A stretch of 64,000 nt of DNA, taken from positions 1 through 64,000 of the IMG/VR virus record IMGVR_UViG_3300023179_000013; one strand, 5' to 3'. This DNA comes from a virus. The stretch's first letter is position 1, and each line of letters opens with the position of its first letter. Made by a program: the position numbers and the translations under genes. This document shows, in pieces, positions 12,882 through 64,000 of this stretch. The notes beneath the pieces were generated by a model. It ran no database searches and was not told the origin of the DNA. It saw only the letters and a program-made list of their open reading frames with translations.

Positions 12882-13124
12882 ATGATGAAAACCTACAAAA
12901 TTAAACTCGAAGATAAAGCTGCATTTCTTAACCGCCTCGATAAAGTAGGTGTTAAGGTTGACAGCTATGAAATTACTGATGATAAGTTAAAAGGTTATTT
13001 TGAATTTACTACTACTGATCCAGTTACGGATAATATTGTAAAAACTATTTTAAAGCAATCTCCTAAGATTAATCAGTTAAAAGAATTGTTACGTAAAATT
13101 GTTCGTGAAGAACTCTTAAAGTAA
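12882..13124 (+). CDS. small protein with C-terminal LRKIVREEL tag
   Basis: ATATTTAT at 12872; C-terminus QLKELLRKIVREELLK. Confidence 0.65.
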   Translation: MMKTYKIKLEDKAAFLNRLDKVGVKVDSYEITDDKLKGYFEFTTTDPVTDNIVKTILKQSPKINQLKELLRKIVREELLK

Positions 13125-17484: not shown

Positions 17485-17847
17485 ATGAACATTAAATTAT
17501 TTAAAAAATTAATTAAAGAAGCAGTAACTGAGGCTATTTATGAAGAATTGCCTGATTTAATTGAAGAAGCATTAGCTAAGCACAACAAACAACCATTGAA
17601 CGAAAACAGAACAATGAGTTTTACTAGTGCTGATGTAGCTCCGTTATCTAAAGATGTACGTAGCTCATTAATGGCTAAAATGGGTGCTGAATTTGGGTTT
17701 CAACAACCACAACGCAATGATTTAAAAGTAATCGATGCTGTTGATCCATCAACAGGAGATAAAGTAAATCCTTACTTAGCATTTATCAATGATGCTGCTA
17801 ATAATATGACTGCACATGATAGATCAGGATTAAGAAATTTAGATTAA
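17485..17847 (+). CDS. hypothetical protein with class-B head tag
   Basis: MNIKLFKKLIKEAVTEAIYE. Confidence 0.7.
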   Translation: MNIKLFKKLIKEAVTEAIYEELPDLIEEALAKHNKQPLNENRTMSFTSADVAPLSKDVRSSLMAKMGAEFGFQQPQRNDLKVIDAVDPSTGDKVNPYLAFINDAANNMTAHDRSGLRNLD

Positions 17848-33204: not shown

Positions 33205-33960
33205 ATGATAAAATTAATTGATTTACTGCTCGAAGCAGCAACCCAACCCAAAGCCATATTTTTAGCTGGTCCTGCTGGGTCTGGTAAATCTTATATATCT
33301 AAGCAATTAATCCCATCAGGATTAACTGTAATTAATGTAGACGATACTTACGAAGAATTATTAAAAGCAGCTGGTTTAGGTACAAAAATTGCTGACTTTA
33401 GTCAAGACCAATTATCGCAAGCAGCTAAATTAATGGGTCAAGCTCAAAAAGCTACTAAAGAAAAATATGCACAATTATCTGCTGCTAAAAATAATATTGT
33501 AATAGATGGTACTGGTGCTGCTCCTAAGCCACTATTAAAGAAAAAAGCAGAATTAGAAGCATTGGGATATGACACAATGATGATTATGATTTGGGTTTCG
33601 CCTTATACATCATTAGAGCGCAATGCACAACGTGATCGTGCTTTACCTCCTGCTATTGTACTTCGTACGTGGCGTGATGTAAATAAAAATATTGAAACAT
33701 ATAGATCAGCTTTTGATAAAGATTTTATATTAGTCGATAATGATCCTGAAGCTAGATTTGAATATAACCCTGAATATGTTAAACAACAATTTTTCAAAAC
33801 AGTAAAGGGTAGTGGTAAGAAATACTCACCAGAGGAATTAGTTAAAAAGAAAGAAGAAATAGATGCTATGAATCAAGAAATAGCTAGTTTACTTACTAAT
33901 GTTCCTGACTTTATGACTATTGAAGATGCAAAATCTAAAATAAATAATTTTTTAAAATGA
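33205..33960 (+). CDS. zeta-toxin/AAA_33-like P-loop kinase with class-A head tag
   Basis: MIKLIDLLLE leader; AGPAGSGKS, INVD, IVIDGTG, SLERNAQRDR. Confidence 0.75.
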   Translation: MIKLIDLLLEAATQPKAIFLAGPAGSGKSYISKQLIPSGLTVINVDDTYEELLKAAGLGTKIADFSQDQLSQAAKLMGQAQKATKEKYAQLSAAKNNIVIDGTGAAPKPLLKKKAELEALGYDTMMIMIWVSPYTSLERNAQRDRALPPAIVLRTWRDVNKNIETYRSAFDKDFILVDNDPEARFEYNPEYVKQQFFKTVKGSGKKYSPEELVKKKEEIDAMNQEIASLLTNVPDFMTIEDAKSKINNFLK

Positions 33961-48527: not shown

Positions 48528-48562
48528 TATTTATGGACATCACACTAAACGAATTGAAAGTA

Positions 48563-49633
48563 ATGAAAGCTAAACAACTCCGCAGAATTATTCGCGAAGC
48601 AATACAAGAAATATTAACTGAAGGCCCGGCAGAAGATAAAAAAGCACAAGATACTGAAAAACAGGCAACTCAAGCTCAAATAGCTGCTTTGCAGAAGAAA
48701 AAATCAGAATTAAATACTGCTACTCCATCAGCTGCTGACAAACCAGCTCACGATGCTGAAAAAGTAGCTGTTGACAAAAAAATAGCATCTCTAGGTAAAA
48801 AAATGCAAAAATTAAATAAACCTGGTATTTCTGCTCTCGAATTGGATGAAATGGCTCGTACCCCTAAAGGATTCCGTTTAGCTGATGAAAATATAGATAC
48901 TGCTCAATATGCTAACAAACGCGTTAGTGGAACTTCATTACAAGACATTATCAACTACTTCCGCGAAAACCCAGGTGCTGATAAAAAATCATTACAATCA
49001 CAATTTAATTTTGCTCGCCCACAAATCGCCAATGCTGTAGTAAACGCATTGCTTGATGCTGGTGTGTTAGTTAAATTAGGTGCTGGAGGTGAAGTTGAAG
49101 CTACACCTGAACCAGGTGAAGAAGTAGCACCACAAGCTACTGAACCAGAAGATTTGTTTATGGGTGGTGCTGATAATCCTCTCGCAATGTATTTTGATGA
49201 TAAACCAAATGATGATGGTTCTGAAGACTTTACTGATAGTACTGAACCAGAAGCTGGTGAACTTGAAAAAGCAGAACCTGCTGCCGGCTCAATGTCAGAT
49301 GAAGATTATAATACCTGGATGAAATATGATGATTTATCTCAACGCTTAGCTGCTACTAAATCTAATATCTTAAAATTAAGAAAATCTAGAACAACAGCTG
49401 GTGATATCTCAGATAAACCATCAACTGAATTACAACGTTTACGTGATTTAAAAAAATCACTTGAAGATAGAATTAATGATTTAGTTGCAGGTTCAGATTA
49501 TTTAAAAAATAAAATTGCAAAACAAACTGGCAAACCAGTTGAACCAATTGAAACACCTGAAGAAGAAACAGAAGAACCATTAGATGAATGGACAATTGGA
49601 AAAATGCAATATTACGCTGGTATTAAAAAATAA
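48563..49633 (+). CDS. acidic protein with class-B N-tag and class-C C-tag, probable core protein
   Basis: LRRIIREAIQEILTE at the N-terminus; KMQYYAGIKK at the C-terminus. Confidence 0.7.
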   Translation: MKAKQLRRIIREAIQEILTEGPAEDKKAQDTEKQATQAQIAALQKKKSELNTATPSAADKPAHDAEKVAVDKKIASLGKKMQKLNKPGISALELDEMARTPKGFRLADENIDTAQYANKRVSGTSLQDIINYFRENPGADKKSLQSQFNFARPQIANAVVNALLDAGVLVKLGAGGEVEATPEPGEEVAPQATEPEDLFMGGADNPLAMYFDDKPNDDGSEDFTDSTEPEAGELEKAEPAAGSMSDEDYNTWMKYDDLSQRLAATKSNILKLRKSRTTAGDISDKPSTELQRLRDLKKSLEDRINDLVAGSDYLKNKIAKQTGKPVEPIETPEEETEEPLDEWTIGKMQYYAGIKK

Positions 49634-49636
49634 TTT

Positions 49637-50032
49637 ATGGTAAAGAAAAAAACAGTTACAAAGGCTGAACTTATCGATTTTATTAATAAAAATAAAAGTA
49701 AAGGTAAAATTGGTCTTTATATTATTGGTGGAATATTAGTATTATTAGGATTATTGTGGGTTACCACTCGTCAACCACAAATGCCTGCTGATATTAAAGC
49801 AACAATCGATTCATTAACTAATGTTAATAAACAATTAATTGAACATCAAAAACAAATTGATAGTACAATTAATGCTTATGAAACAGAAGTTAAGCAAATT
49901 GATTTTCAAGTAGATCACATTAAGGAAAAAACTACTATTGTTCGTGAATATTATCATGAAGCAAGTCAACAAGCAGAACAATATACTCCAACTCAAGTTG
50001 ATTCATTCTTTAAAGCAAGATACAATTACTAA
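49637..50032 (+). CDS. TM plus coiled-coil protein, i-spanin-like
   Basis: N-terminal TM, then a long coiled coil. Confidence 0.5.
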   Translation: MVKKKTVTKAELIDFINKNKSKGKIGLYIIGGILVLLGLLWVTTRQPQMPADIKATIDSLTNVNKQLIEHQKQIDSTINAYETEVKQIDFQVDHIKEKTTIVREYYHEASQQAEQYTPTQVDSFFKARYNY

Positions 50033-50427
50033 TGAAATACCTTTTAATTATATTAGCGTTTTTACCTTTATTTGGTAACGCTCAAACACAAGATACAGTT
50101 CATATTCCTGCACCTGTTGCTAAACTAATTGTTAAAGATTTAGTTAGTGGTGATAGTGCTAAAGCTGAATTAAAATTAGCAAATGAGCATGTTACACTTT
50201 TAGAATCAAAAATAACACTAAAAGACAGTATCATTTCAGGACACGTTCAAAAAGGCATTATATACGAAGAGCGTATCAAAAATGAACAAGCTAAATTTGA
50301 TGCTCAAGGATTATGGGTTAAAGACTTACAAAAACAAAACAAGAAACTTAAAGTTAAACTTGCTTTCCTTAAAATAACTGGAACCGCTATTGTTGGTGGT
50401 TTAACATATTTATATTTTACAAAATAA
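50032..50427 (+). CDS. signal peptide, coiled coil and C-terminal TM, spanin-like
   Basis: MKYLLIILAFLPLFGNA|Q; C-terminal hydrophobic anchor. Confidence 0.5.
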   Translation: MKYLLIILAFLPLFGNAQTQDTVHIPAPVAKLIVKDLVSGDSAKAELKLANEHVTLLESKITLKDSIISGHVQKGIIYEERIKNEQAKFDAQGLWVKDLQKQNKKLKVKLAFLKITGTAIVGGLTYLYFTK

Positions 50428-50450
50428 CCCCTTGCAATCCCATGCACTGA

Positions 50451-50479
50451 GGCCTAACCACAACGGTTGGGCTTCTTTT
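50451..50479 (+). terminator. intrinsic terminator
   Basis: GGCCTAACC-ACAAC-GGTTGGGCT followed by TCTTTT. Confidence 0.65.
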
Positions 50480-50510
50480 ATATATTTATATATAACCAAT
50501 AGTGTTATAT

Positions 50511-52094
50511 ATGGCTAATCAAGCAGACATTAAAGAAATAATTAAGCAGGAGTACATCAAATGTGCTATGGATCCTGTGCATTTCTTTAGAAAATATTGT
50601 TACATTACACACCCAGTAAAAGGTAGAGTATTATTTCATCTATACCCATTTCAGGAAACAACATTAGGTGATTTTAGACAGCATCGTTTCTCCATAGTAA
50701 ATAAATCTCGTCAGTTAGGTATCTCTACTCTTGTAGCAGGATATGCTTTGTGGACAATGTTGTTTCAAAAAGATAAAACAGTATTGTGTATAGCTACTAA
50801 ACAAGAAACAGCTAAAGGAATGGTTGAAAAGGTACAATTTATGTATAATAACTTACCTTCCTGGTTACGTGGTAACCAAAAACCAATTTCAGATAATAAA
50901 TTATCACTAAAATTAGCTAATAACTCTCAAATTGTAGCTACATCCGCTGCCTCAGATGCTGGTCGATCCTACGCCGTATCCTTATTATTAATAGATGAGG
51001 CCGCGTTTATTGAAGGTATTGATCGCATTTACACCAGTATTAAACCTACCATTGCTACGGGTGGAGGAATCATAGCATTATCCTCTCCAAATGGTATTGG
51101 TAACTGGTTTCACAAAATGTATACTGAAGCTCAAATTGGCAAGAATGACTTCTGGCCAATAGAGCTAAAATGGAATTTACATCCTGATAGAGATGAGGCT
51201 TGGGAAGAACGTGAACGTGCAAACATGTCACCACGTGAATTTGCCCAAGAATATGACTGTGACTTCCTTGGTTCTGGAAACTCAGTAATTGAACCTGACA
51301 ATCTATCCTTTTATGAACAAACATTTATCCAAGATCCTGTGGAACGCCGCTTTATGGGTGGTGATTTTTGGATTTGGCAGTATCCTGATTATAGTAAGTC
51401 TTATATTTTATGTGCTGACGTTGCTCGCGGAGATGGCTCGGACTACTCAGCGTTTCATGTTATCGATGTGGAAACATGTGAACAAGTAGCTGAATATAAG
51501 TCGCAAATAGATACTAGAACATATGGTAATATGCTTGTTTCTGTTGCTTCTGAATATAATAATGCTTTACTTGTAGTTGAAAATGCAAACGTAGGATGGG
51601 ATGTAGTAAACACAATTATAGAAAAAGGTTATAGAAACTTATATTATTCACCTCGTGCTTATGGTGAAATGCATGTAGATAAATGGATGGCTAAAATGGA
51701 TAGTGAACAAACAGTTCCTGGATTCACTACATCAGTCAAAACAAGACCACTTGTTATCTCCAAAATGGAGGCGTATATTCGAGATAGAGTATTTACTTTT
51801 AGGTCTAAACGCTTACTTGAAGAATTACGTGTATTCGTTTGGCAAAATGGTAAAGCTCAAGCCCAAAATGGATATAATGACGACTTAGTTATGGCCTTAG
51901 GAATTGGATTATTTACTAGAGACACTGGTGTTAAATTCCATCAACAAGGGTTAGACATGACTAGGATGGCTTTGGGTGGTATATCTAGAACTGGTGGTGG
52001 ACCAGGTGACATGCCTATGTTACCAAGCGGAACACCAAATCCATATATAATGGATACACCCCACGGCCCTGAAGATTTTACATGGATACTATAA
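50511..52094 (+). CDS. terL: terminase large subunit (T4 gp17-like)
   Basis: LYPFQ, KSRQLGIST, LLLIDEAAF, SSPNG, QEYDC, ADVARGDGSDYS, NDDLVMA. Confidence 0.95.
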   Translation: MANQADIKEIIKQEYIKCAMDPVHFFRKYCYITHPVKGRVLFHLYPFQETTLGDFRQHRFSIVNKSRQLGISTLVAGYALWTMLFQKDKTVLCIATKQETAKGMVEKVQFMYNNLPSWLRGNQKPISDNKLSLKLANNSQIVATSAASDAGRSYAVSLLLIDEAAFIEGIDRIYTSIKPTIATGGGIIALSSPNGIGNWFHKMYTEAQIGKNDFWPIELKWNLHPDRDEAWEERERANMSPREFAQEYDCDFLGSGNSVIEPDNLSFYEQTFIQDPVERRFMGGDFWIWQYPDYSKSYILCADVARGDGSDYSAFHVIDVETCEQVAEYKSQIDTRTYGNMLVSVASEYNNALLVVENANVGWDVVNTIIEKGYRNLYYSPRAYGEMHVDKWMAKMDSEQTVPGFTTSVKTRPLVISKMEAYIRDRVFTFRSKRLLEELRVFVWQNGKAQAQNGYNDDLVMALGIGLFTRDTGVKFHQQGLDMTRMALGGISRTGGGPGDMPMLPSGTPNPYIMDTPHGPEDFTWIL

Positions 52095-52127
52095 TTGATA
52101 AATATTTATTGACATAATAAAACACAA

Positions 52128-54017
52128 ATGGCTGAACAAAATACAGGCTTATTTAGTAGATTAAGACGCCTATTCTCCACAGATGTTATCATCAGAAATG
52201 TAGGAGGCAATCAGTTAAAAACGGTAGACGTTGACAGAATTCAAGCTTACGGAAACGTAAAAACAAATGCTTTAATTGATAGATTCACCAAGTTGCACCG
52301 CTATGGCGCTAATATGCCATACAACCCAACAATGAACTACCAAACACTTCGTATTCAGTTATATACTGACTATGAAGCAATGGATACAGAATCAATTGTT
52401 GCCTCTGCTCTTGATATTGTTGCTGATGAATCAACATTAAAGAATGAAGCTCAAGAAGTAGTACAAATCAGAAGTGCTGACGAAAATGTTCAACGCATTT
52501 TATATAATTTATTCTATGATGTTTTAAACATAGAATTTAACTTATGGTTATGGATTCGCAATATGTGTAAATATGGCGACTTTTATTTACACCTTGAAAT
52601 TGCAGAAAAATTTGGTATTTACAGCGTAACACCATTATCAGTTTATGATATGGTTCGTGAAGAAGGTACAGATCCTACTAATCCATCTTATGTGTGTTTT
52701 AAGATTGATCCAATGGTAATTGCCGCTGGTGGTATCAACTCACGTGTTAAAGATAGAGATGGTAAGATTAAATTTGAAAATTATGAAATAGCGCATTTTA
52801 GACTATTAACTGACGCTAACTACTTGCCTTACGGACGTTCTTATATTGAGCCTGCTCGTAAGTCTTATAAGCAATATGTGTTGATGAAAGATGCTATGTT
52901 GTTACATCGCATCACCCGTGCCCCAGAAAAACGTATCTTCTACGTTGATATTGGAAACTTACCTCCGAATGAAGTTGATGGATACATGGAGCGTTTAAAG
53001 CAAAAAATGCAAAAAACTCCATTCATCGACAAAAATACTGGCGAATATAACTTACGTTATAACATGATGAACGTAATGGAGGACTTCTATATTCCACAAC
53101 GTGGCGCTAATAGCAATACTAAAATCGATACCTTAAAAGGTTTAGAGTATAATGCTATTGATGACGTAAACTTCCTCCGCGATGAAATGTTAGCAGCACT
53201 TAAAGTACCTAAAGCTTTCTTCGGATTTGAAAAAGACTTAACAGGTAAGGCTACATTAGCTGCTGAAGATATTCGTTTTGCTCGCACCGTTGAACGCATT
53301 CAACGTATTGTTGTTAGTGAATTGTATAAAATAGCCTTAGTACACTTATACGTTCAAGGATATGATGGTGAATCATTGACTAATTTCGAATTATCATTGA
53401 CTACTCCATCAATCATCTATGAACAGGAAAAAGTAGCATTATGGAAAGAAAAAATAGCATTAGCTAAAGATATCCAAGATACCAAATTATTACCTTCAGA
53501 TTGGATTTATGATAATGTATTCCAATTCAGCGAAGATCAATATGATGAATATCGTGATTTAGTACTTGAAGATATGAAACGTACCTTCCGCTTATCCCAG
53601 CTTGAAAACGAAGGTAACGACCCAGCTAAATCTGGTAAATCTTATGGTACACCACACGATCTTGCTTCATTGTATGGTAAAGGAAGAAATGGTGTTGGTG
53701 ATACAGGTGCTATCCCTCCTGGATATGACGAAAAACGTCCTGTTGGTCGTCCTGAAGAGAAATCTTCTATTGTAGGTACACAAAAAGACCCATTAGGTAA
53801 AGATAGATTAGGTAGTATTGAAAATGGTACATTATATACTGCTAATATTCCTGATGAAGGAAGCAGTACACCAAAAGGTGGTTCACCATTAGCATTAGCT
53901 GAATCTAAAAAGCATAAAGGCTTACTTGAAGGAATGAGTGCCTTCCGTAAAGAATTAGCTATTAAACCTGAACAGGAATCTACACTATTGGACGAAAAAA
54001 ATATCAAGGACGTATAA
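52128..54017 (+). CDS. gp20: portal protein (T4 gp20-like)
   Basis: RITRAPEKRIFYVDIGNLP, EDFYIP, TKIDTL, ALKVP, EDIRF. Confidence 0.95.
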   Translation: MAEQNTGLFSRLRRLFSTDVIIRNVGGNQLKTVDVDRIQAYGNVKTNALIDRFTKLHRYGANMPYNPTMNYQTLRIQLYTDYEAMDTESIVASALDIVADESTLKNEAQEVVQIRSADENVQRILYNLFYDVLNIEFNLWLWIRNMCKYGDFYLHLEIAEKFGIYSVTPLSVYDMVREEGTDPTNPSYVCFKIDPMVIAAGGINSRVKDRDGKIKFENYEIAHFRLLTDANYLPYGRSYIEPARKSYKQYVLMKDAMLLHRITRAPEKRIFYVDIGNLPPNEVDGYMERLKQKMQKTPFIDKNTGEYNLRYNMMNVMEDFYIPQRGANSNTKIDTLKGLEYNAIDDVNFLRDEMLAALKVPKAFFGFEKDLTGKATLAAEDIRFARTVERIQRIVVSELYKIALVHLYVQGYDGESLTNFELSLTTPSIIYEQEKVALWKEKIALAKDIQDTKLLPSDWIYDNVFQFSEDQYDEYRDLVLEDMKRTFRLSQLENEGNDPAKSGKSYGTPHDLASLYGKGRNGVGDTGAIPPGYDEKRPVGRPEEKSSIVGTQKDPLGKDRLGSIENGTLYTANIPDEGSSTPKGGSPLALAESKKHKGLLEGMSAFRKELAIKPEQESTLLDEKNIKDV

Positions 54018-54053
54018 CAACTACATATTTATAGGTAGTGCATACTATTTTAT

Positions 54054-54908
54054 ATGAAAATTAAACATAGCAAATTCAAAAATACTGGTATATTATTTGA
54101 ACTATTGGTTCGCCAAATCGCGTCAGATACAGTATCCGGTAAGGATTCAGCTGCTATTAATTTAGTAAAGAAATATTTTTCTAAATCTGAATTAACTAAA
54201 GAACATAAGTTATATCAGGCTTTAACTAATACTAAAGCATTAACTGAAAGTAAAGCCGAATCATTAATCACAGCAACACTTGAAATATCTTCACGTTTAA
54301 ATCGTTCTGCGTTACGTAAAGAAAAATATAATTTAATCAAAGATATTCGTGAAGCTTATGATATTGAAGAGTTCTTCAAATCAAAAATCAATAACTATTC
54401 ACAATACGCTGCTGCGTATAATTTAATTGAGGCTCATAACTCACTAGAGTTTGTTGAACCTGCTCAAGTTATTGAAAATAAAGTAACATTATTAGAGCAT
54501 ATTACTCGTAAAGAGGTAAATAAAGCTAATGTTACAGATCGCGTGTTAGAAGAGTATGCTAAAATGGACAAAGGTACTCGTATCTTAGCCTACAAAATGT
54601 TGCTTGAAAAATTCAACGAAAAATATGGTGATATGTCCCCAGCACAAAAATCTGTGTTGAAAGAATATATTAATAATATTTCTAATACTGTTAAATTACG
54701 TGAATTTGTAAATGAAAGCACTACCGCTATTAAAGCACAAATTGCACAATTAAGTAAAACAGTAGTTGATAAAACAACTCAAATTAAATTGACTGAAATA
54801 GTTAATTTATTAAAACCACTTGATAAAAATCAAAGCGTAAAGGATGATAACATCATTGCTTTACTGCAGTTTCACCAATTAATTGACGAATTAAAATCTG
54901 TAAAATAA
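54054..54908 (+). CDS. conserved hypothetical protein of the head module
   Basis: IKHSKFKNTGILFELL start; sits between portal and protease. Confidence 0.75.
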   Translation: MKIKHSKFKNTGILFELLVRQIASDTVSGKDSAAINLVKKYFSKSELTKEHKLYQALTNTKALTESKAESLITATLEISSRLNRSALRKEKYNLIKDIREAYDIEEFFKSKINNYSQYAAAYNLIEAHNSLEFVEPAQVIENKVTLLEHITRKEVNKANVTDRVLEEYAKMDKGTRILAYKMLLEKFNEKYGDMSPAQKSVLKEYINNISNTVKLREFVNESTTAIKAQIAQLSKTVVDKTTQIKLTEIVNLLKPLDKNQSVKDDNIIALLQFHQLIDELKSVK

Positions 54909-54915
54909 AAATAAA

Positions 54916-55476
54916 ATGGCACAATTAATCAACGAAGCAAAAAGAATGCAATTTTTAGCAGGTCTTATTACTGAATCACAATTAAATGAAGAAAGTATTA
55001 AGTCTTTATTAAAACAAAAAGAAGATGTAGTTAAAATATTATCACCTTTAAAAGGAACTACATTAAACTTAGTAGGGTTAAGTGAAGATAACAAACCAAA
55101 CGGATGCACAGCTACAGCTACTGTATCTAATATAAATAATGAATATTATCCACAAGGGTCTAATAGTGATCCAGATTATTTTCAAATAAGCCCAGAACTT
55201 ACTTTTACTATTTCTAATGAAAAATTAGGTAGTGATCAAGAAGAAAATAATAAATTTAAAAAAACTTTAGAAGATATCAAATCAACACCATGTACTATTT
55301 CTGGTGGTGGAAGTAATAAATTAAAAGTTATTATGGATGCTAATAGTGGTTTTTTAAGTGGCTATGAAATAGGAGCTACTAAAGAAAGTACATTCTTTAA
55401 AAAACTTGAAGAAATACTTAAAGCAGATATACAGTGGCAAAGTAAAGGTGGCGATTTATTAGCACTTGGAGCATAA
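54916..55476 (+). CDS. hypothetical protein with class-C tag
   Basis: LINEAKRMQFLAGLITE. Confidence 0.7.
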   Translation: MAQLINEAKRMQFLAGLITESQLNEESIKSLLKQKEDVVKILSPLKGTTLNLVGLSEDNKPNGCTATATVSNINNEYYPQGSNSDPDYFQISPELTFTISNEKLGSDQEENNKFKKTLEDIKSTPCTISGGGSNKLKVIMDANSGFLSGYEIGATKESTFFKKLEEILKADIQWQSKGGDLLALGA

Positions 55477-55486
55477 TATAAAAATA

Positions 55487-56278
55487 ATGAATTTAAAAGA
55501 ATACATAAAATCATTAGTACGTAAACAATTAGAAGAAGAATCTGCATCTGGAGATGCTGGTGGGTATTTAACACCACGTGCTTTTTCTTCTAAAGGACAA
55601 AAGAAAAATACTGCAACTAAATATGCTGAAAAAGAAGGATGGAAAGTAACCAAAGGAATGCCTAAGCATTCTAAAATGCTTGACTATAAAGAACTATGGA
55701 AAGGTAAAAAATCAGCAATGAACGAACTTTTAAACGAATTAGCTGAAGCTTCGATTCCTGTATCTGAAATAAAAAAAATTATCAAGTTATACGCTGAAAC
55801 TGATGGTATGACGGGGGCACAACTTTTTAATGCTTTAAAAGATTTATTAAGTAAATATAAATCTATAAGCGAGCGTAGTAATTATGATGCCCCTAGTGGT
55901 TATACTGCAGCTAGTGGATATACTGGTCCTAGTTTAGCTACTAAAGGAGGTGGATATTATGCATCTACAAAAGAAAATCAAATGAAAGAATCATTAAACA
56001 ACATTATTGAAAAAGAATTAATTAACGAAGTAACCTATAATAAGTTTAAAACTGAAGTTAAATTCAGAACTAAATCTGAACAACTTCATAAAGCAATTCG
56101 TGAGGTAAAACGTAAATTACAAGAAATTGATCGTATTGTTGAGTATACTTCTCGCATGAAACAAGAATTAAGTGAAGATGGAGGTATTAATTATTGGAAA
56201 GCTACCCAAAAGAATGTAGGTCAAATTTCTGAAATGATCAACCAATTAAATAATAAGATTAAAAACTTAAATCAATAA
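55487..56278 (+). CDS. modular protein with class-B tags, probable core protein
   Basis: LKEYIKSLVRKQLEE; YLTPRAF; IIEKELINE. Confidence 0.7.
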   Translation: MNLKEYIKSLVRKQLEEESASGDAGGYLTPRAFSSKGQKKNTATKYAEKEGWKVTKGMPKHSKMLDYKELWKGKKSAMNELLNELAEASIPVSEIKKIIKLYAETDGMTGAQLFNALKDLLSKYKSISERSNYDAPSGYTAASGYTGPSLATKGGGYYASTKENQMKESLNNIIEKELINEVTYNKFKTEVKFRTKSEQLHKAIREVKRKLQEIDRIVEYTSRMKQELSEDGGINYWKATQKNVGQISEMINQLNNKIKNLNQ

Positions 56279-56406
56279 TGGCAAAAGCAACTGGTAGAGG
56301 TGAGTCACGTAAAGTAACATTCGGTACACGCAAAGGTGGTAAAGCTGCTAAATCACGTGGACCTAAAGATAAAAAAGTATCAAAATATAAAGGCCAAGGC
56401 CGCTAA
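56278..56406 (+). CDS. 42-aa highly basic peptide ending YKGQGR (not in ORF track)
   Basis: TAATG coupling; MAKATGRGESRKVTFGTRKGGKAAKSRGPKDKKVSKYKGQGR. Confidence 0.7.
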   Translation: MAKATGRGESRKVTFGTRKGGKAAKSRGPKDKKVSKYKGQGR

Positions 56407-56418
56407 ATTACAATACAA

Positions 56419-58299
56419 ATGAAAAGTATAAAGCAACAATTCATTGATTTGAAAGAAGGTAGAATGTCACAACAAAATTTCATGAGAAATTTACGTATGG
56501 CTATGCCTCATTATGTAACTAATGTAACATCATTTGGCGATGCTGTTAAAATTCTTCGCAATAAGGGTATTTTAAATGAAGCTTTAATTGAAGGAAATCT
56601 TGACGTTGATCAAGAAGAATTAAAAAAAGGCATCAAAGTTGAAATGGAACATACTAAAGATCGTATTAAAGCTGAAGAAATTGCTTTAGATCATTTACAA
56701 GAAGATCCTAAATATTATACTAAATTAGATAAAGCTGGTTTAGAAGAGAATGATGGTGATGATGATGAAATCCAAGCTATGATTGATAAATACGAAAAAG
56801 AAAAAAAAGGTGAAGAAGCTGTAATGAGCCAATATGATGAAAATCTAAATGAGGCTAAAGCTAAATGGGAAAATGCTAATGGAAAATCAATGTATGCTCA
56901 ATTTAAAGAAATTGACAATTTAAATGGTCAAGAAGTATTGATTGGTATTGATTTGGAAATGGAAAAAGACGAAGATTTATCTAAAATTGAAGCTGCCAAG
57001 ATTGTCCTTAAAAACCTAAAGAAAAACCCAATCTACTATACAGCTATGTTATTAGCTGGTGGTAAAGAAATGACTGAAATTCCAACTATTGGTAAATTAA
57101 AGCCTGGCTCTGACAAAATGAAAGAAGTCAAAGGTGAAGATAGCTTGGTTGATAAAGATAATGGAATGAAGCCGGTTAAAGATATTGAAAAAGTAAAAGC
57201 ATCATCTAATAAAGCTTCTAAAGAAACTAACAAACCAGAAAAAGGCATTTCATTGATGTCATTAGTTGCTAAAGCATCTCGTGGTGTTCAAAAAATGAAT
57301 GCTACTGGTGAAAAAATGAAAGTAGTAAAAGAAGATTTAGAGCGTGATTTTGATCCTGAAATTGAAGGCAAACCATCATCAGCATATATGCAGTTTTTAG
57401 CACAAAAGAAAGGTGAAGAAGCAGCTGCTGAAATACATAATGGCCTTAAAAGAGGAGATAAAGTAAAAGTTAATTCTGAAGCTGCAAAAGCATTAAAAAT
57501 TAATCCTAACGAAACCTTTACTATCACTTCATTTAAAACAAACCGTCCAGGTTCTTTATTACAAAGTATTGATGTAGAATTAGCAAATAAAGTTGGTCAA
57601 AGTGTTGGATATGTTAATGTAGAATATGTGTATGAAGCTGGTAGTGAAACACCAAAAGTTGATAATGGTAGTGTTCCATCAACTATATTTAGCAGAAACG
57701 CTGGTATTTCTCAAAAATTAAAATCATTGTCTAAAGACGATTTAATGGAAATAATTCGTGAAGAATTATCTGAATATTTTGATGGTCGTGATAATTTAAC
57801 TGACACTGCTGGTCATCAAAATGAAGGAATAGTATCTGGAGCTTTAGCTAAAGTTAAAGATAAAATTGTTAATTCTTCTTTATTTAAAAAACTTATAGAT
57901 ACAATTGTATCTAAAATGTCTGACAAAGATATAGCTGCTTTTAAAGCTAAATTTAATATTTCTGAAGCAGAAGGTGGTCCGTCTTTAGAAGATATTATGT
58001 CTAAAGTAGATGCTATTAATCCTGATAAAACTGCTAAAACTCCTGAAGATTTAAAAGAAGCACTTGATGAAGATACACTTGAGGGAAAAATAGCTGGTTT
58101 GGTTAGAAGCATAGCTGGGATTAATTTATTAGCTTTAGGTGGTGCTCCATTAGGTATTTTTATTAATTCTTTATTAGGAATTGCTACGTGGGGATTTGGA
58201 GCTTTTATAGGTCCCGTGATTAGTTTAGTAGCTTCTCTTATTATTCATGGAATATCTAGTAGACTTTTAGGAAAAACAGGTGATGACGAGTTAGTTTAA
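56419..58299 (+). CDS. modular head protein with two DUF5661-like repeats and a C-terminal hydrophobic hairpin
   Basis: GIKVEMEH...IALDHLQEDPKYYT and GIDLEME...IVLKNLKKNPIYYT; many LxE sites. Confidence 0.7.
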   Translation: MKSIKQQFIDLKEGRMSQQNFMRNLRMAMPHYVTNVTSFGDAVKILRNKGILNEALIEGNLDVDQEELKKGIKVEMEHTKDRIKAEEIALDHLQEDPKYYTKLDKAGLEENDGDDDEIQAMIDKYEKEKKGEEAVMSQYDENLNEAKAKWENANGKSMYAQFKEIDNLNGQEVLIGIDLEMEKDEDLSKIEAAKIVLKNLKKNPIYYTAMLLAGGKEMTEIPTIGKLKPGSDKMKEVKGEDSLVDKDNGMKPVKDIEKVKASSNKASKETNKPEKGISLMSLVAKASRGVQKMNATGEKMKVVKEDLERDFDPEIEGKPSSAYMQFLAQKKGEEAAAEIHNGLKRGDKVKVNSEAAKALKINPNETFTITSFKTNRPGSLLQSIDVELANKVGQSVGYVNVEYVYEAGSETPKVDNGSVPSTIFSRNAGISQKLKSLSKDDLMEIIREELSEYFDGRDNLTDTAGHQNEGIVSGALAKVKDKIVNSSLFKKLIDTIVSKMSDKDIAAFKAKFNISEAEGGPSLEDIMSKVDAINPDKTAKTPEDLKEALDEDTLEGKIAGLVRSIAGINLLALGGAPLGIFINSLLGIATWGFGAFIGPVISLVASLIIHGISSRLLGKTGDDELV

Positions 58300-58322
58300 G
58301 AATTAATTTATAAATAACAAAA

Positions 58323-58934
58323 ATGAGTAAATCATTATTAATAGATCACACCCCCTTTCAATCAGCTAAGCTTACTTTAGTTGAAGGTAAAGATACTAAA
58401 GCTGGTTTAGTTGAATTAGTAGGTAAACTACAAGCCGCTGACCAAGAAAATGGTAACAATCGTAAATATCCTTTTAAAGTTCTTAAACGTGAAGTAGACA
58501 AATATTTAGAAGGTCCTGTTAAAACACGTACTGCTTTAGGCGAATTAGATCATCCTGAAGCATCTGTTGTAAATTTAGCAAATACTTCACATGTTGTCAC
58601 TGATGTTTGGTGGGATGGAAATAACGTTATGGGTAAAATCCAATTATTACCTACACCATCAGGCAATATTGCTAAAGCATTAATTTTATCAGGTATTCCA
58701 CTTGGTATTTCATCTCGTGGTATGGGTTCAGTTAAACAGTTAGGTGAAACTGTAGAGGTACAAGACGATTTCGAATTATTATGTTGGGATTTAGTATCAG
58801 TACCATCAACCCCACAAGCATATATGCAATTAGCTGAATCTAAGAAATTTGCTTCAGTTAAAGATTATAGTAAAGTAAATGAATTAATTACCGAAATTAT
58901 TTGCGCACAAACAGGAGTATGTCCACTATGTTAA
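58323..58934 (+). CDS. gp21: prohead maturation protease (T4 gp21-like)
   Basis: NGNNRKYP, ALGELDHP, SH, GISSRGMGS, WDLVSVPS. Confidence 0.93.
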   Translation: MSKSLLIDHTPFQSAKLTLVEGKDTKAGLVELVGKLQAADQENGNNRKYPFKVLKREVDKYLEGPVKTRTALGELDHPEASVVNLANTSHVVTDVWWDGNNVMGKIQLLPTPSGNIAKALILSGIPLGISSRGMGSVKQLGETVEVQDDFELLCWDLVSVPSTPQAYMQLAESKKFASVKDYSKVNELITEIICAQTGVCPLC

Positions 58935-59518
58935 TACAAGAAGCAAAAAGACTACAGCAATTAGCTGGTATTATAACTGAAGCTGAAGATGCTAAAGCTG
59001 AACAAGCTGTTGAAAAAGGATTAAAATCTTTTTTAAATATTTTACAATCAGCGGAACAACAGGTTAAAGTATCTCCTAATGATGGAAAACAAAATGAAAT
59101 TTTTGTAACTCTAGCATCTATTATAATAGGAGCACCAGGATTATTAAATTTACTTGGGAAAGGAGCAGATCTTATAGGACAATATTTTTCACAAGGTGCT
59201 GTTAATAAAACAAAAATAGGTGATTTGTTAAAAACTGCAGGTCATAATTTAGAAAACCAATATATAGGTTCTTTAGCAGGATGGATTAAAGCAGCTTATC
59301 CTAAAAGTTATGGAGATCAAGATCCTTTTGACAAAACATCAGAATTACATGATTTAGCTCATGGAGCTTACGCTTCTTTATTAGTTGGAGCTGCTATTGG
59401 ATCTGGACTTGAAGCAGGCCATGCTATAAATGCTGTTGTTAAAGGGCTCGAAGGGGGTGCTGCTGCTTTTAAAACATCTGAAGTAGCAGATTTAGCTAAA
59501 AAAATAGTAGCTGCTTAA
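58928..59518 (+). CDS. class-C tagged protein with hydrophobic helices
   Basis: MLIQEAKRLQQLAGIITE; IFVTLASIIIGAPGLL; LLVGAAIGSG. Confidence 0.7.
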   Translation: MLIQEAKRLQQLAGIITEAEDAKAEQAVEKGLKSFLNILQSAEQQVKVSPNDGKQNEIFVTLASIIIGAPGLLNLLGKGADLIGQYFSQGAVNKTKIGDLLKTAGHNLENQYIGSLAGWIKAAYPKSYGDQDPFDKTSELHDLAHGAYASLLVGAAIGSGLEAGHAINAVVKGLEGGAAAFKTSEVADLAKKIVAA

Positions 59519-59547
59519 AAATAATTCGCGGTTTTTAATATCTACAT

Positions 59548-59671
59548 ATATTTATGGGTAGCCTACAATAGCTACCCACTTCTATTTATGGTAGCTTGGT
59601 TAATCAATTAACCCCCATTAAGCTTCTCTAATAAGCTTATTTCCGAAAACAAATTTAAGGAGAAAAACAAA
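59548..59671 (+). promoter_or_regulatory. structured 5' leader of the scaffold/capsid operon
   Basis: ATATTTAT, three hairpins, then TAAGGAG 9 nt before the ATG. Confidence 0.55.
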
Positions 59672-60952
59672 ATGAGTAACAAAAACTTATTCAAAGAGGC
59701 TATCGCCGACGCCAAAGCCGTTCGCGAAGCTGCGTTAGCAAACGCAAAAGCCGCTCTTGAAGAAGCTTTAACTCCAAAACTTCAATCCATGTTAGCTGCA
59801 AAGTTACAAGAAATGGATGGTGAAGAAGAAGTTGAAGAAGCTAAAAAGAGCGAAAAAGAAATGGAAGAAGGATTCGACACTGAAACTTTTGGTTGGGACA
59901 AAGAAGACACTACTTCCCTCAACGAAGAAGATTTAGAAGAAGACTTCGATTTATCTGAAATTTTAGCTGAGTTAAACGAAGCTGAAAAAGAAGAAGCTGG
60001 TGAAGAAGCAGAAGGCGAATCTGAAGAAGAAGAAGCCACTGAAAAAGAACCAACTGGAGAAGAAGGTGAAGAAGAAGTAGAGGTAAAAGATATGACTATC
60101 GAAGACCTCAAAGATCTTATCAAAGACATCGTATCTCAAGAAATGGGTGGTGAAGCTCCTGAAATGGGTGCTGAAGAACCTACAGACATGGGTGGTGAAG
60201 AAACCGGCGGTGCTGAAGATGAGATTGATTTAGAAGAATTGTTAGCTGAATTGGATTCTTTAGATGAATCAGAAGAGCTTGAAGAAGCTAAAAAGAAAAA
60301 AGATAAAGAAAACAAAAAAGAAGACAAAAAAGACAAGAAAATGGTAAAAGAAAATTACGAAGAAGAAGAACTTGAAGAAGGTATCTTTGGTGACTTAGGT
60401 AACAAACTTTCCGCTTGGGCTTATGACACAGATCTTGATACTATCAAATCTTGTAAAGACCAAACTAAAGGAAAAGGAATTGCTGCCTTCCAAGATTGCT
60501 TGAAAAGCAAAGGTGTTAAAATGTCTACTATTGGTACTGAACCAGGCGCTAGCGCTATGGGCGGTAACTGGAAGCAATTCGGTAAAACTACAGGTGAATT
60601 CAAAGAAGAACTTGAAGAAGCTATCGAAACTATCAACACTCTTCGTAATGAGTTAAACGAAGTTAATTTGTTAAACGCTAAGTTACTTTATGTTAATAAA
60701 ATCTTCAAAGCTAAGAATTTGACTGAATCACAAAAAGTAAAAGTAATTGCTTCATTCGATAAAGCAACTAATGTTAAAGAAGCTAAAGTAGTATTTGAAT
60801 CTCTTCAAACTGCTTTAACTGCTGCCCCTAAAAATCAAATCAAAGAAAGTCTTGGATTTGCTTCTAAAGCAGCTGGTATAGCTCCTAACAAAACTATTGT
60901 TGAGTCTAATGATGTGATTGCACGTATGCAAAAACTTGCAAACATCAAATAA
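59672..60952 (+). CDS. gp22: prohead core scaffold (T4 gp22-like)
   Basis: Very acidic coiled coil between protease and capsid genes; LNEVNLLNAKLLY; C-terminal RMQKLANIK. Confidence 0.85.
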   Translation: MSNKNLFKEAIADAKAVREAALANAKAALEEALTPKLQSMLAAKLQEMDGEEEVEEAKKSEKEMEEGFDTETFGWDKEDTTSLNEEDLEEDFDLSEILAELNEAEKEEAGEEAEGESEEEEATEKEPTGEEGEEEVEVKDMTIEDLKDLIKDIVSQEMGGEAPEMGAEEPTDMGGEETGGAEDEIDLEELLAELDSLDESEELEEAKKKKDKENKKEDKKDKKMVKENYEEEELEEGIFGDLGNKLSAWAYDTDLDTIKSCKDQTKGKGIAAFQDCLKSKGVKMSTIGTEPGASAMGGNWKQFGKTTGEFKEELEEAIETINTLRNELNEVNLLNAKLLYVNKIFKAKNLTESQKVKVIASFDKATNVKEAKVVFESLQTALTAAPKNQIKESLGFASKAAGIAPNKTIVESNDVIARMQKLANIK

Positions 60953-60984: not shown

Positions 60985-62652
60985 ATGAACATTCAATCAT
61001 TATTAGAGTCATCAAACCAATACAAGGTTATTGCTGATGACGCCAAAAAACTCTCCGCTAAGTGGACCAAATCTGGTCTCTTAGAAGGATTAAAAAGCGA
61101 GAACGATCGCAATACAATGGCGATGTTACTCGAAAACCAAGCTAAGCAGTTAGTAACTGAAGCTTCATCTACTGGTAACCAATCTGGTGGTGCTGGTGCT
61201 TACAACGGTGAAAGCTGGAACGGTGTTGCCCTTCCATTAGTACGCCGTGTATTCGGTGAAATCGCTGCTAAAGAATTCGTTTCTGTACAGCCGATGAACT
61301 TACCTTCTGGTCTCGTATTCTACTTGGACTTCAAGTATGGTACTGGTGTTAAACCATTTGCCTCTGGTGGTTCTTTATATGGAGCTAATGCTTCTACAAA
61401 CGTAACTGATATTGCTTCAGCTTCATTATATGGTGCTGGTAAATTCGGTTATTCTATCAACCAATTCTCATCTTCTATTGCTGCTATCACATCATCTGCT
61501 GGTGGTGCAACTGGTGCTGCTACTTGGTTAGATTTTAACTTAGACGCTGCTTACTCTTCTTCTTTTACTAGCTTTAAAAAGATCCTTGTTCCATTACCTG
61601 CTAACTTCGATGTTAACGGTGTTCGTGCTTTCCAAGTTCTTTCAGGTTCTACTAACATTGACTTACAAGTATTGTCTGCGTTTACAACTGTATCTAACAA
61701 TACTGGTTCCTTTATCGTTACTGGTTCCTTAATTCCAGTTGCTGCTATTGGTGCTGGTGGTACTTTAGGTAATGTAACTTTATTGTATAACGTAGCTCCT
61801 TTAGCAACATCTCGTGGTGACTTTGAAGATGCTAATAACCTTAACTCTCCAGGTACTAACCCAGGTGGTTATCCAAATAACCAATCACAAACTGCAATTG
61901 CTATTCCAGAAGTTAACGTTCAGTTAAAATCTGAAGCAATCGTTGCTAAAACTCGTAAGTTGAAAGCTCAGTGGACTCCAGAATTCGCTCAAGACTTAAA
62001 CGCTTACCATAGCGTAGATGCTGAAGCTGAATTAACTGGTATCTTATCTCAGTACATCTCTATGGAGATTGACCTCGAGTTGTTAGATATGTTAATCCAG
62101 AACGCTTTCACAGTTGATTACTGGTCTGCTACTAACAACACTGCTTACAGTGTTTCTGGTACTACTGTTACTACTTCTGCATTAGCTTTCTATAACACCC
62201 AAGGTGGTTGGTTCCAAACTTTAGGAACTAAACTCCAGAAAGTTTCTAACAAAATTCACCAGTTAACTTTACGTGGTGGTGCTAACTTCTTAGTTTGCTC
62301 TCCAACTGTAGCTACTATCATCGAATCAATCCCAGGATTTGCTTCTGATGGTGATGGTGATAAAATGGAATTCAACTTCGGTATCCAAAAGGTTGGTTCT
62401 CTTAACAGTCGTTACAAGGTTTACAAGAACCCATATATGACTGAGAACGTAATCTTAATGGGTTACAAAGGTGCTCAATTCCTTGAGTGTGGTGCTGTAT
62501 TTGCTCCATACGTTCCGTTAATCATGACTCCACTTCTTTACGATCCAACAACCTTCACTCCACGTAAAGGTTTGATGACTCGTTACGCTAAGAAGATGAT
62601 CCGTCCTGACTACTACGGTAAGATCTATGTTGCTGGTTTAGATACTATCTAA
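60985..62652 (+). CDS. gp23: major capsid protein, copy 1 (T4 gp23-like)
   Basis: LLENQ, PLVRR, VQPMNLPSGLVF, AKTRKLKAQWTPEFAQDLNAYH, APYVPL, TRYA. Confidence 0.97.
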   Translation: MNIQSLLESSNQYKVIADDAKKLSAKWTKSGLLEGLKSENDRNTMAMLLENQAKQLVTEASSTGNQSGGAGAYNGESWNGVALPLVRRVFGEIAAKEFVSVQPMNLPSGLVFYLDFKYGTGVKPFASGGSLYGANASTNVTDIASASLYGAGKFGYSINQFSSSIAAITSSAGGATGAATWLDFNLDAAYSSSFTSFKKILVPLPANFDVNGVRAFQVLSGSTNIDLQVLSAFTTVSNNTGSFIVTGSLIPVAAIGAGGTLGNVTLLYNVAPLATSRGDFEDANNLNSPGTNPGGYPNNQSQTAIAIPEVNVQLKSEAIVAKTRKLKAQWTPEFAQDLNAYHSVDAEAELTGILSQYISMEIDLELLDMLIQNAFTVDYWSATNNTAYSVSGTTVTTSALAFYNTQGGWFQTLGTKLQKVSNKIHQLTLRGGANFLVCSPTVATIIESIPGFASDGDGDKMEFNFGIQKVGSLNSRYKVYKNPYMTENVILMGYKGAQFLECGAVFAPYVPLIMTPLLYDPTTFTPRKGLMTRYAKKMIRPDYYGKIYVAGLDTI

Positions 62653-62726: not shown

Positions 62727-64000
62727 ATGAATATTCAATCTCTGTTAGAGTCATCTAATCAATACAAAGTTATTGCTGATGACGCAAAAAAGCTTACCCA
62801 AAAGTGGGTTAAGTCTGGCCTTTTAGAAGGCATTAAGAGTGAGAATGAGCGTAATACGTTATCCATATTATTGGAAAACCAAGCTAAACAATTAGTAACC
62901 GAAGCATCTTCCACAGGTAACCAAGCTGGTGGTGCAGGTGCTTACAATGGTGAAAGCTGGAACGGTGTAGCTTTACCATTAGTACGTAGAGTATTTGGTG
63001 AGATTGCTGCTAAAGAATTCGTTAGTGTTCAACCAATGAATTTACCTTCTGGTCTTGTGTTTTATTTGGATTTTAAGTACGGTACTAATGATGTGCATTT
63101 TACCCAAAATGCTTCATTATATGGTGCTAACGCTACCACAAACGTAACTGACATTACATCTGAATCTCTTTATGGTCCTGGACAATTTGGTTATTCTATC
63201 AATAACTTCTCAGCTTCTGTTTCAAATGCACTTACAGGTGCTCTTGCCACATGGGCTGACTTTAACTTAAATGCAGATTATTCTGCTTCTGCAGCAGCTA
63301 ATTTGTATAGAAAGTTATTAGTTCCATTACCAGCAAACTCTGACGTAAATGCAGTTCGTTCATTTTTTATTAGTGGTAGTACAATATCTGGTTCAGGAGC
63401 TAATGCTTGGGAAGCTATTGGAAGTTATACTATATCTAATATCTTACAAGAATTTACTACTGTAGCAAATAATACTGCTTCATTCTTATTACCTTCATCT
63501 TCATTTGTTAAGATTGTAGGAACAGCTCCAACCAGTTCTAATGGTGTTCAAACAGCAGTATTGTACTACACAGTACAACCTTTAGCAACATCACGTGGTG
63601 ATTTTGAAGACGCTAGCAACTCTAACTCCCCAGGTACTAATCCTGGTGGTTATCCTAGTAATTTAAGTCAAACCACAATTTCAATTCCTGAAGTTAATGT
63701 TCAGTTAAAATCTGAAGCTATTGTAGCTAAAACTCGTAAGTTGAAAGCACAATGGACACCTGAATTTGCCCAGGATTTGAATGCTTATCATTCAGTAGAC
63801 GCTGAATCTGAATTAACAGGAATTTTATCTCAATACATTTCTATGGAAATTGATCTTGAGTTATTAGACATGTTAATCCAAAACGCCTTTACTGTTGATT
63901 ATTGGTCTGCTACTAACAACACTGCTTATGGTGTTTCTGGTACTACTGTTACTACTACTAACTTAGCCTTTTACAATACTCAAGGTGGTTGGTTCCAAAC
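62727..64000 (+). CDS. gp23: major capsid protein paralog, copy 2 (truncated by window end; not in ORF track)
   Basis: Open from ATG 62727: MNIQSLLESSNQYKVIADDAKKLTQKWVKSGLLEG...TRKLKAQWTPEFAQDLNAYHSVDAE...QGGWFQ. Confidence 0.93.
   Translation, partial: MNIQSLLESSNQYKVIADDAKKLTQKWVKSGLLEGIKSENERNTLSILLENQAKQLVTEASSTGNQAGGAGAYNGESWNGVALPLVRRVFGEIAAKEFVSVQPMNLPSGLVFYLDFKYGTNDVHFTQNASLYGANATTNVTDITSESLYGPGQFGYSINNFSASVSNALTGALATWADFNLNADYSASAAANLYRKLLVPLPANSDVNAVRSFFISGSTISGSGANAWEAIGSYTISNILQEFTTVANNTASFLLPSSSFVKIVGTAPTSSNGVQTAVLYYTVQPLATSRGDFEDASNSNSPGTNPGGYPSNLSQTTISIPEVNVQLKSEAIVAKTRKLKAQWTPEFAQDLNAYHSVDAESELTGILSQYISMEIDLELLDMLIQNAFTVDYWSATNNTAYGVSGTTVTTTNLAFYNTQGGWFQ

Follow-up and report, generated by a model that had tools for sequence, protein, structure and literature searches.

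The C-terminal tails of the scaffolding proteins of P22 and the herpesviruses bind coat protein (PMC11565965), as a preliminary description of the DNA studied here had noted. The tail of the phage 80α scaffold binds the N-arm of its coat protein, and CpmB, from a Staphylococcus aureus pathogenicity island (SaPI), binds likewise via a homologous C-terminal motif (PMC5644958). A truncated P22 scaffold fusion can load foreign cargo into the procapsid (PMC9962691). In T4, the protease gp21 removes a 65-residue propeptide from the capsid protein gp23, and the localization of proteins in prohead cores of this type is described as unresolved (PMC9958956). Here we describe a 64,000-nucleotide stretch of viral DNA (hereafter the window), bases 1-64,000 of the complete 168,946-bp genome, with terminal repeats, of an Immutovirus-like phage (IMG/VR record IMGVR_UViG_3300023179_000013), in which a short motif at the C-terminus of a gp22-like head scaffold recurs at the ends of three other proteins, and we suggest that it serves as a tag for loading proteins into the head.

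Each of these systems resembles the present locus in part. Like CpmB, which shares a RIIK helix-and-hook with the 80α scaffold, non-scaffold proteins here carry the scaffold's C-terminal motif, as judged by sequence. However, CpmB is a satellite-encoded rival scaffold that alters capsid size, whereas the copies described here belong to the complete genome of the phage itself, with two of them inside its head operon, and are mostly N-terminal, flanked by cut sites and attached to unrelated putative cargo; the CpmB and 80α sequences are themselves unrelated to the tag. In the engineered P22 system a C-terminal scaffold fragment likewise suffices to bring foreign proteins into the procapsid, but that fusion is artificial and 65-160 residues long, while the tag here is natural, spans about 12-20 residues and is apparently self-removing. 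With the T4 capsid-targeting sequence (CTS) the locus shares a T4-like head module, a short N-terminal peptide common to unrelated small proteins, a terminal Glu site of the prohead protease type (here a sequence match) and a proposed role in prohead loading. The CTS, which gp21 removes from the T4 internal proteins, is about 10 amino acids (aa) long, always N-terminal and absent from other core proteins (PMC9958956), whereas the tag here, at 18-25 aa, has a different core, occurs at either end or internally, coincides with the scaffold C-terminus in 75 of 75 loci (see below) and is carried by at least hundreds of unrelated families. Some tag copies lack the upstream CTS-like part entirely. 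The tag would work like the T4 CTS, yet it falls outside that class in length, in sequence and in being shared with the scaffold.

Encapsulin cargo-loading peptides, too, are short terminal peptides on the cargo of an HK97-fold shell, one with no scaffold or maturation protease. Encapsulins are non-viral shells without scaffold, portal or terminase, whereas the window contains a full phage head module. In SPN3US and phiKZ, head propeptides are removed by a Glu-specific prohead protease, as we propose for the tag, and the available part of that account reports no shared scaffold-like motif among the SPN3US propeptides (PMC10052503). We found no paper describing a scaffold-tail tag in the open-access literature, a search that does not prove absence.

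In our proposal, a short helix made up of the final ~12 scaffold residues would dock against the inside of the prohead shell as it assembles, the N-terminal arm of the capsid precursor being the most likely site. Copies of this helix would act as an address label, usually in an 18-25-residue N-terminal leader and sometimes in a C-terminal tail, so that tagged proteins could fill spare scaffold-binding sites and be co-assembled into the prohead. The gp21-like protease would then cut after [LIV]xE on one or both sides of the label, releasing a 13-15-residue peptide, and the cargo would stay inside the head, to be ejected with the DNA or to form an accessory core. To this whole account, whose partner, cleavage and ejection we infer, we give a probability of about 0.58, while loading into the head through whatever partner appears very probable.

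The motif and its predicted flanking cleavage sites

The four places at which the motif had first been noted, including the scaffold C-terminus, were all located (Table 1; genes are named by their first base). A strict eight-residue consensus drawn from the genome's own copies, [RK][ML]Qx[LY]A[GN][IL], has no further match in the six frames of the window. The three tagged proteins noted beside the scaffold are all those in the window, but a fifth copy was missed, near the N-terminus of gene 152021-152419 (complete-genome coordinates); missed as well was that the scaffold-tail tag is one of at least three leader classes in the genome.

Table 1. Scaffold, tagged genes, tag peptides and presumed partner genes in the window (positions within the 64,000 nucleotides).
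Feature	Position	Strand	Basis
356-aa protein (366 aa from ATG 48533) with N-terminal leader of another class (48563-48622) and scaffold-type C-terminal tail	48563..49633	+	
C-terminal tag peptide of 48563, 14 aa, after predicted cut at L-D-E (E342 of 356); motif 49601-49624, two aa before the stop	49589..49633	+	
186-aa candidate cargo gene in accessory slot of head operon; near-ORFan body	54916..55476	+	one relative
N-terminal leader of 54916, 25 aa; motif 54943-54966, from residue 10; predicted cuts after E7, E20, E25	54916..54990	+	
gp21-like prohead protease (Peptidase_S77), presumed processing enzyme	58323..58934	+	hidden Markov model (HMM) match
196-aa candidate cargo gene flanked by the protease and scaffold genes; hydrophobic, Gly-rich helices beginning at residue 58	58928..59518	+	
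N-terminal leader of 58928, 18 aa; motif 58949-58972, from residue 8; predicted cuts after E5, E18	58928..58981	+	
gp22-like head scaffold, 426 aa, 26% Asp+Glu, 22 [LIV]xE sites	59672..60952	+	position and composition
C-terminal peptide of scaffold, 15 aa, after predicted cut at E411 of 426; motif 60923-60946, one aa before the stop	60905..60952	+	
Major capsid protein copy 1 (gp23), presumed tag partner; helical N-terminal propeptide with invariant residues, among them E59	60985..62652	+	
Major capsid protein copy 2, N-terminal region nearly identical to copy 1	62727..64000, runs on to 64433	+	

All five copies in the genome stand at protein ends (chance of all five being terminal, ~6e-5), and five matches were observed where 2,000 shuffles of the 53,259-aa proteome gave a mean of 0.005 and a maximum of 1, a figure that flatters the motif because the consensus was derived from these same copies. 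The out-of-sample check is provided by the 75 scaffold loci described below. Outside the tag the four window proteins are unrelated (best BLASTP E 2.4), and searches of Pfam families and PDB sequences with the tag gave no match.

Proteases of the gp21 type cut after [LI]xE, and the enzyme of this genome presumably shares that specificity. The [LIV]xE sites mentioned in the preliminary description were seen beside every window copy, and the predicted cuts would free peptides of 13-15 residues from all five proteins. Of 87 N-terminal motifs across related loci, 83 have such a site downstream and 71 have one upstream, compared with 10.7% of control windows; the upstream count is partly built into the DNA patterns that fetched some of the loci, which to that extent weakens the case. 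The capsid propeptide itself ends at an invariant V-T-E59, matching the 65-residue propeptide of T4 gp23.

Distribution across phages and virions

To avoid circular sampling, loci were picked by capsid protein alone. In all 75 loci so fetched the motif ends the scaffold, taken as the gene upstream of the capsid gene, and it is retained while scaffold length varies widely (about 310-490 aa). The motif is also the scaffold end in immuto, Mel-JY01, RM378, LR756508, Atu_ph07 and PA5oct, and CBB and RsoM2USA have variant scaffold tails. In the window the scaffold was identified by its position between the protease and capsid genes, its acidic composition and its many [LIV]xE sites; an HMM search with it gave no match.

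The fetched loci encode 271 distinct motif-bearing proteins, 174 with the motif at the C-terminus, 88 at the N-terminus and 9 internally. In an enlarged locus set, 93 N-tagged proteins (median 139 aa) fall into 77 unrelated families, and a profile of the leader matches 1,760 clusters at 50% identity worldwide. Among the best 150 profile-matching clusters the leader is N-terminal in 146, and their 122 longer bodies make up 86 families. Few bodies could be named: an exonuclease, a peptidoglycan-binding protein, an Imm5-like and a WYL-like protein. Related genomes carry zero to seven copies; in Flavobacterium phage immuto_2-6A, gp083 and another gene near 25.1 kb are tagged. In the capsid-fetched loci fixed slots of the head operon, including both slots used here, gain and lose tagged genes. 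Besides scaffolds, the C-terminal copies belong to the 48563 family and four other singletons, and several other C-tailed proteins also bear an N-terminal leader. Some proteins contain two tag copies (P0178-P0187, P0202), being either polyproteins with an internal leader or proteins with a tag at each end.

Synonymous codon positions vary in the tag while the residues are fixed, so that it is the peptide on which selection acts; an explanation of the copies as a DNA element was rejected on this ground. The idea that cargo mimics the scaffold helix is supported in so far as a broad T4-like lineage conserves the motif at the end of its scaffold and employs it again, in portable form, on proteins that are otherwise unrelated. 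Leaders can also be exchanged on a given body: of 53 database matches to the body of 58928, among which it counts itself, 49 begin with this leader; one has a short CTS-like leader instead, two have a leader of a third type, and the remaining match is a fragment. This swap suggests that the leaders do the same job. The 48563 family is conserved in the clade, and the predicted structure of 48563 has a tail helix at residues 352-361 (predicted local distance difference test, pLDDT, 81-86) following a disordered acidic linker.

The expectation that tagged proteins occur in particles agrees with published virion mass spectrometry of cultured relatives. In Atu_ph07 (480 kb scanned) the motif is found in exactly three open reading frames (ORFs), at the scaffold tail and at the N-termini of gp111 and gp257; gp111 and gp257 are in the published virion table and the scaffold is not. 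With 131 of 714 Atu_ph07 genes detected, the probability of finding both is P=0.033. CBB_213, which has two tag copies, was detected in the virion, and PA5oct EST35_0203, which starts with the motif and has a second copy further on, is marked as found by electrospray ionization tandem mass spectrometry (ESI-MS/MS); these two proteins are unrelated to each other. All four N-tagged non-scaffold proteins of Atu_ph07, PA5oct and CBB were detected in this way, which gives no position within the virion. The proteome of RsoM2USA is too shallow for the test.

Proposed docking partner and competing explanations

As to what the tag binds, we consider coat protein somewhat better than an even bet. The capsid N-terminal helices contain many invariant residues and are nearly identical in the two paralogs, which fits a possible docking site there. 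Complex prediction for capsid protein with the 54916 leader scored 0.01 against a mark of 0.32, which speaks neither for nor against docking, and AF2 modelled the capsid monomer poorly (pLDDT 58).

Several points weigh against the proposed account. T4 gp22 ends in a different helix without the motif; the tag helix shows weak amphipathicity, short of the 90th percentile for the proteome; and no structure of any gp22-gp23 contact was found. The proteome test comprises four proteins, and for CBB and PA5oct it used looser patterns, which are noisy and are matched also by chance. A scan of XacN1 revealed no clear tag copy, this phage has no virion proteome, and none was found for immuto in the literature. 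In Atu_ph07, gp111 and gp257 lack [LIV]xE after the tag, so that removal of the tag (the cargo being 'cut free', as first envisaged) may not be general.

The most serious contender, although in our view an unlikely one, is a head-loading tag that binds not coat but another prohead component: the scaffold, the conserved core proteins 54054, 55484 and 56419, the portal or the protease. All of the loading evidence would fit such a partner equally, and leader swapping shows several routes into the head. The internal proteins of T4 join the core by a localization mechanism given as unknown (PMC9958956), and the P22 scaffold also directs incorporation of portal and ejection proteins (PMC11565965). 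What favours coat protein over these candidates is the position of the motif at the scaffold's extreme C-terminus, where P22, 80α and the herpesviruses bind coat, together with the retention of the tail though most of the scaffold varies so widely in length.

We think it very unlikely that the motif is instead meant for recognition by a phage chaperone or protease. GroEL/GroES-like and ClpP-like proteins are indeed encoded in the genome, the fifth tagged gene adjoins the ClpP-like gene (at 151464 in complete-genome coordinates, read from sequence with no HMM confirmation), and the N-terminus of T4 gp23 recruits GroEL (cited in PMC10052503). Such a signal, however, would not account for tagged proteins in the mature virions of three relatives, for prohead-protease-type sites bracketing the tag, or for its presence on no core replication enzyme of this genome.

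Less credible still is that the tagged proteins are accessory scaffolds which, like CpmB, adjust the size or assembly of the head and are then completely broken down instead of being retained. Gene 48563 has some features of this sort: its product is acidic and coiled-coil, bears a tag at each end and gives a weak head-scaffolding match (E 0.004), and the other C-tailed proteins with an N-terminal leader recall its double tagging. Most N-tagged bodies, however, are small, unrelated and poor in internal cut sites, exonuclease, peptidoglycan-binding or Imm5 domains are present in some of them, and tagged proteins persist in virions; for 48563 alone the accessory-scaffold reading may hold. That the copies are scaffold gene remnants or a recombination cassette without protein function is largely refuted, for although tagged genes come and go in slots beside the scaffold gene and Trp-type tags occur only with Trp-type scaffolds (4 of 10 versus 0 of 28, in related genomes that are not independent, so that kinship confounds the association and we do not count it as support), the residues are fixed amid synonymous variation, the tail is kept in 118 of 120 homologs of 48563 beside a variable linker, and the motif is retained across very distant phages.

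We thus favour a coat-docking tag. That the scaffold's coat-binding helix became a portable, self-removing loading tag for hypervariable injected proteins across T4-related large phages is a broader claim, to which we assign even odds.

Head module, other leaders and implications

The window encodes a T4-type head module comprising terminase, portal, gp21-like protease, scaffold and two tandem gp23 genes, the capsid paralogs presupposed in the preliminary description. HMM matches to Portal_T4, Peptidase_S77 and Gp23 place the portal, protease and capsid proteins in the T4 type. The nearest isolate is Flavobacterium phage immuto (capsid 58.5% identical), followed by Mel-JY01, a 484-kb uncultured phage and RM378. 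Mel-JY01 (PP395634) was deposited with a Microcystis host and has an immuto-clade head module, so its host assignment may merit checking; a literature search brought up no paper on it. Several related loci (L263-L265, L278) likewise contain a second capsid-like ORF.

The motif ATATTTAT, probably the late promoter, lies upstream of 39 of 227 genes genome-wide, among them those for portal, terminase, sheath-like and tube-like proteins. Its overlap with the first ATG of both 48533 and 152021 speaks for translation from the downstream starts, 48563 and 152042, although in the former gene either 48533 or 48563 may be the start. A portable promoter-tag cassette is not supported as a rule, TATTTAT standing upstream of 26 of 93 tagged genes compared with 39 of 227 genome genes in a similar window.

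Residues ~107-190 of 48533-49633, after an invariant E106, form a conserved alpha/beta domain that is winged-helix-like by sequence and secondary structure; this helix-turn-helix-like middle has no Pfam match, and fold searches with the 48563 model returned nothing at E<=0.001. Against the ESM Atlas, 54916 had no match and 58928 matched unnamed viral clusters only; scanning contigs with the body of 58928 gave no hit. Gly-rich hydrophobic helices begin just past a further Glu site in 58928-59518 and in 56419-58299 (residues 564-618), and similar helices occur in tagged proteins of locus L002. This placement suggests membrane-inserting modules that head maturation would unmask.

A second leader class, CTS-like and about 10 aa long (M-I-K-L-x-D-L-L-x-E), occurs in the window at 33205 (a zeta-toxin-like kinase), 33957, 38094, 42568 and 43556 and in the complete genome also at 67849 and 68189; the Atu_ph07 virion proteins gp43, gp561 and gp672 start with a nearly identical leader. 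The third class, L-R-x-x-I-R-E-x-I followed by an E site, is found in the window at 17485, 37673, 41623, 43001, 45995, 48563 and 55487, internally at 57742 and C-terminally at 13089, and dominates in LR756508, on about ten genes near the head module. A fourth type, M-x-N-F-D-L-K-K-F-L-x-E (P0173, P0174; L062:27632, 28633, 35242), is common in immuto and also precedes a homolog of the 58928 body. The N-terminus of T4 gp22 (L327:4118-4927) is similar to the opening part of the leader and, like the T4 CTS, finishes at an I-A-E site, so the T4 CTS might echo the scaffold N-terminus.

The tag itself is real, widespread and directly testable in cultured phages, and its identity with the scaffold tail proposes a concrete docking site in the prohead. 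If our reading is true, the motif would help to locate where the scaffold binds in gp23-type capsids, and the tag could serve as a minimal signal for packaging proteins. Sequence could then reveal the head cargo of uncultured phages, and over a thousand uncharacterized protein clusters would be flagged as likely head cargo, a pool in which anti-defence and host-takeover proteins are expected.

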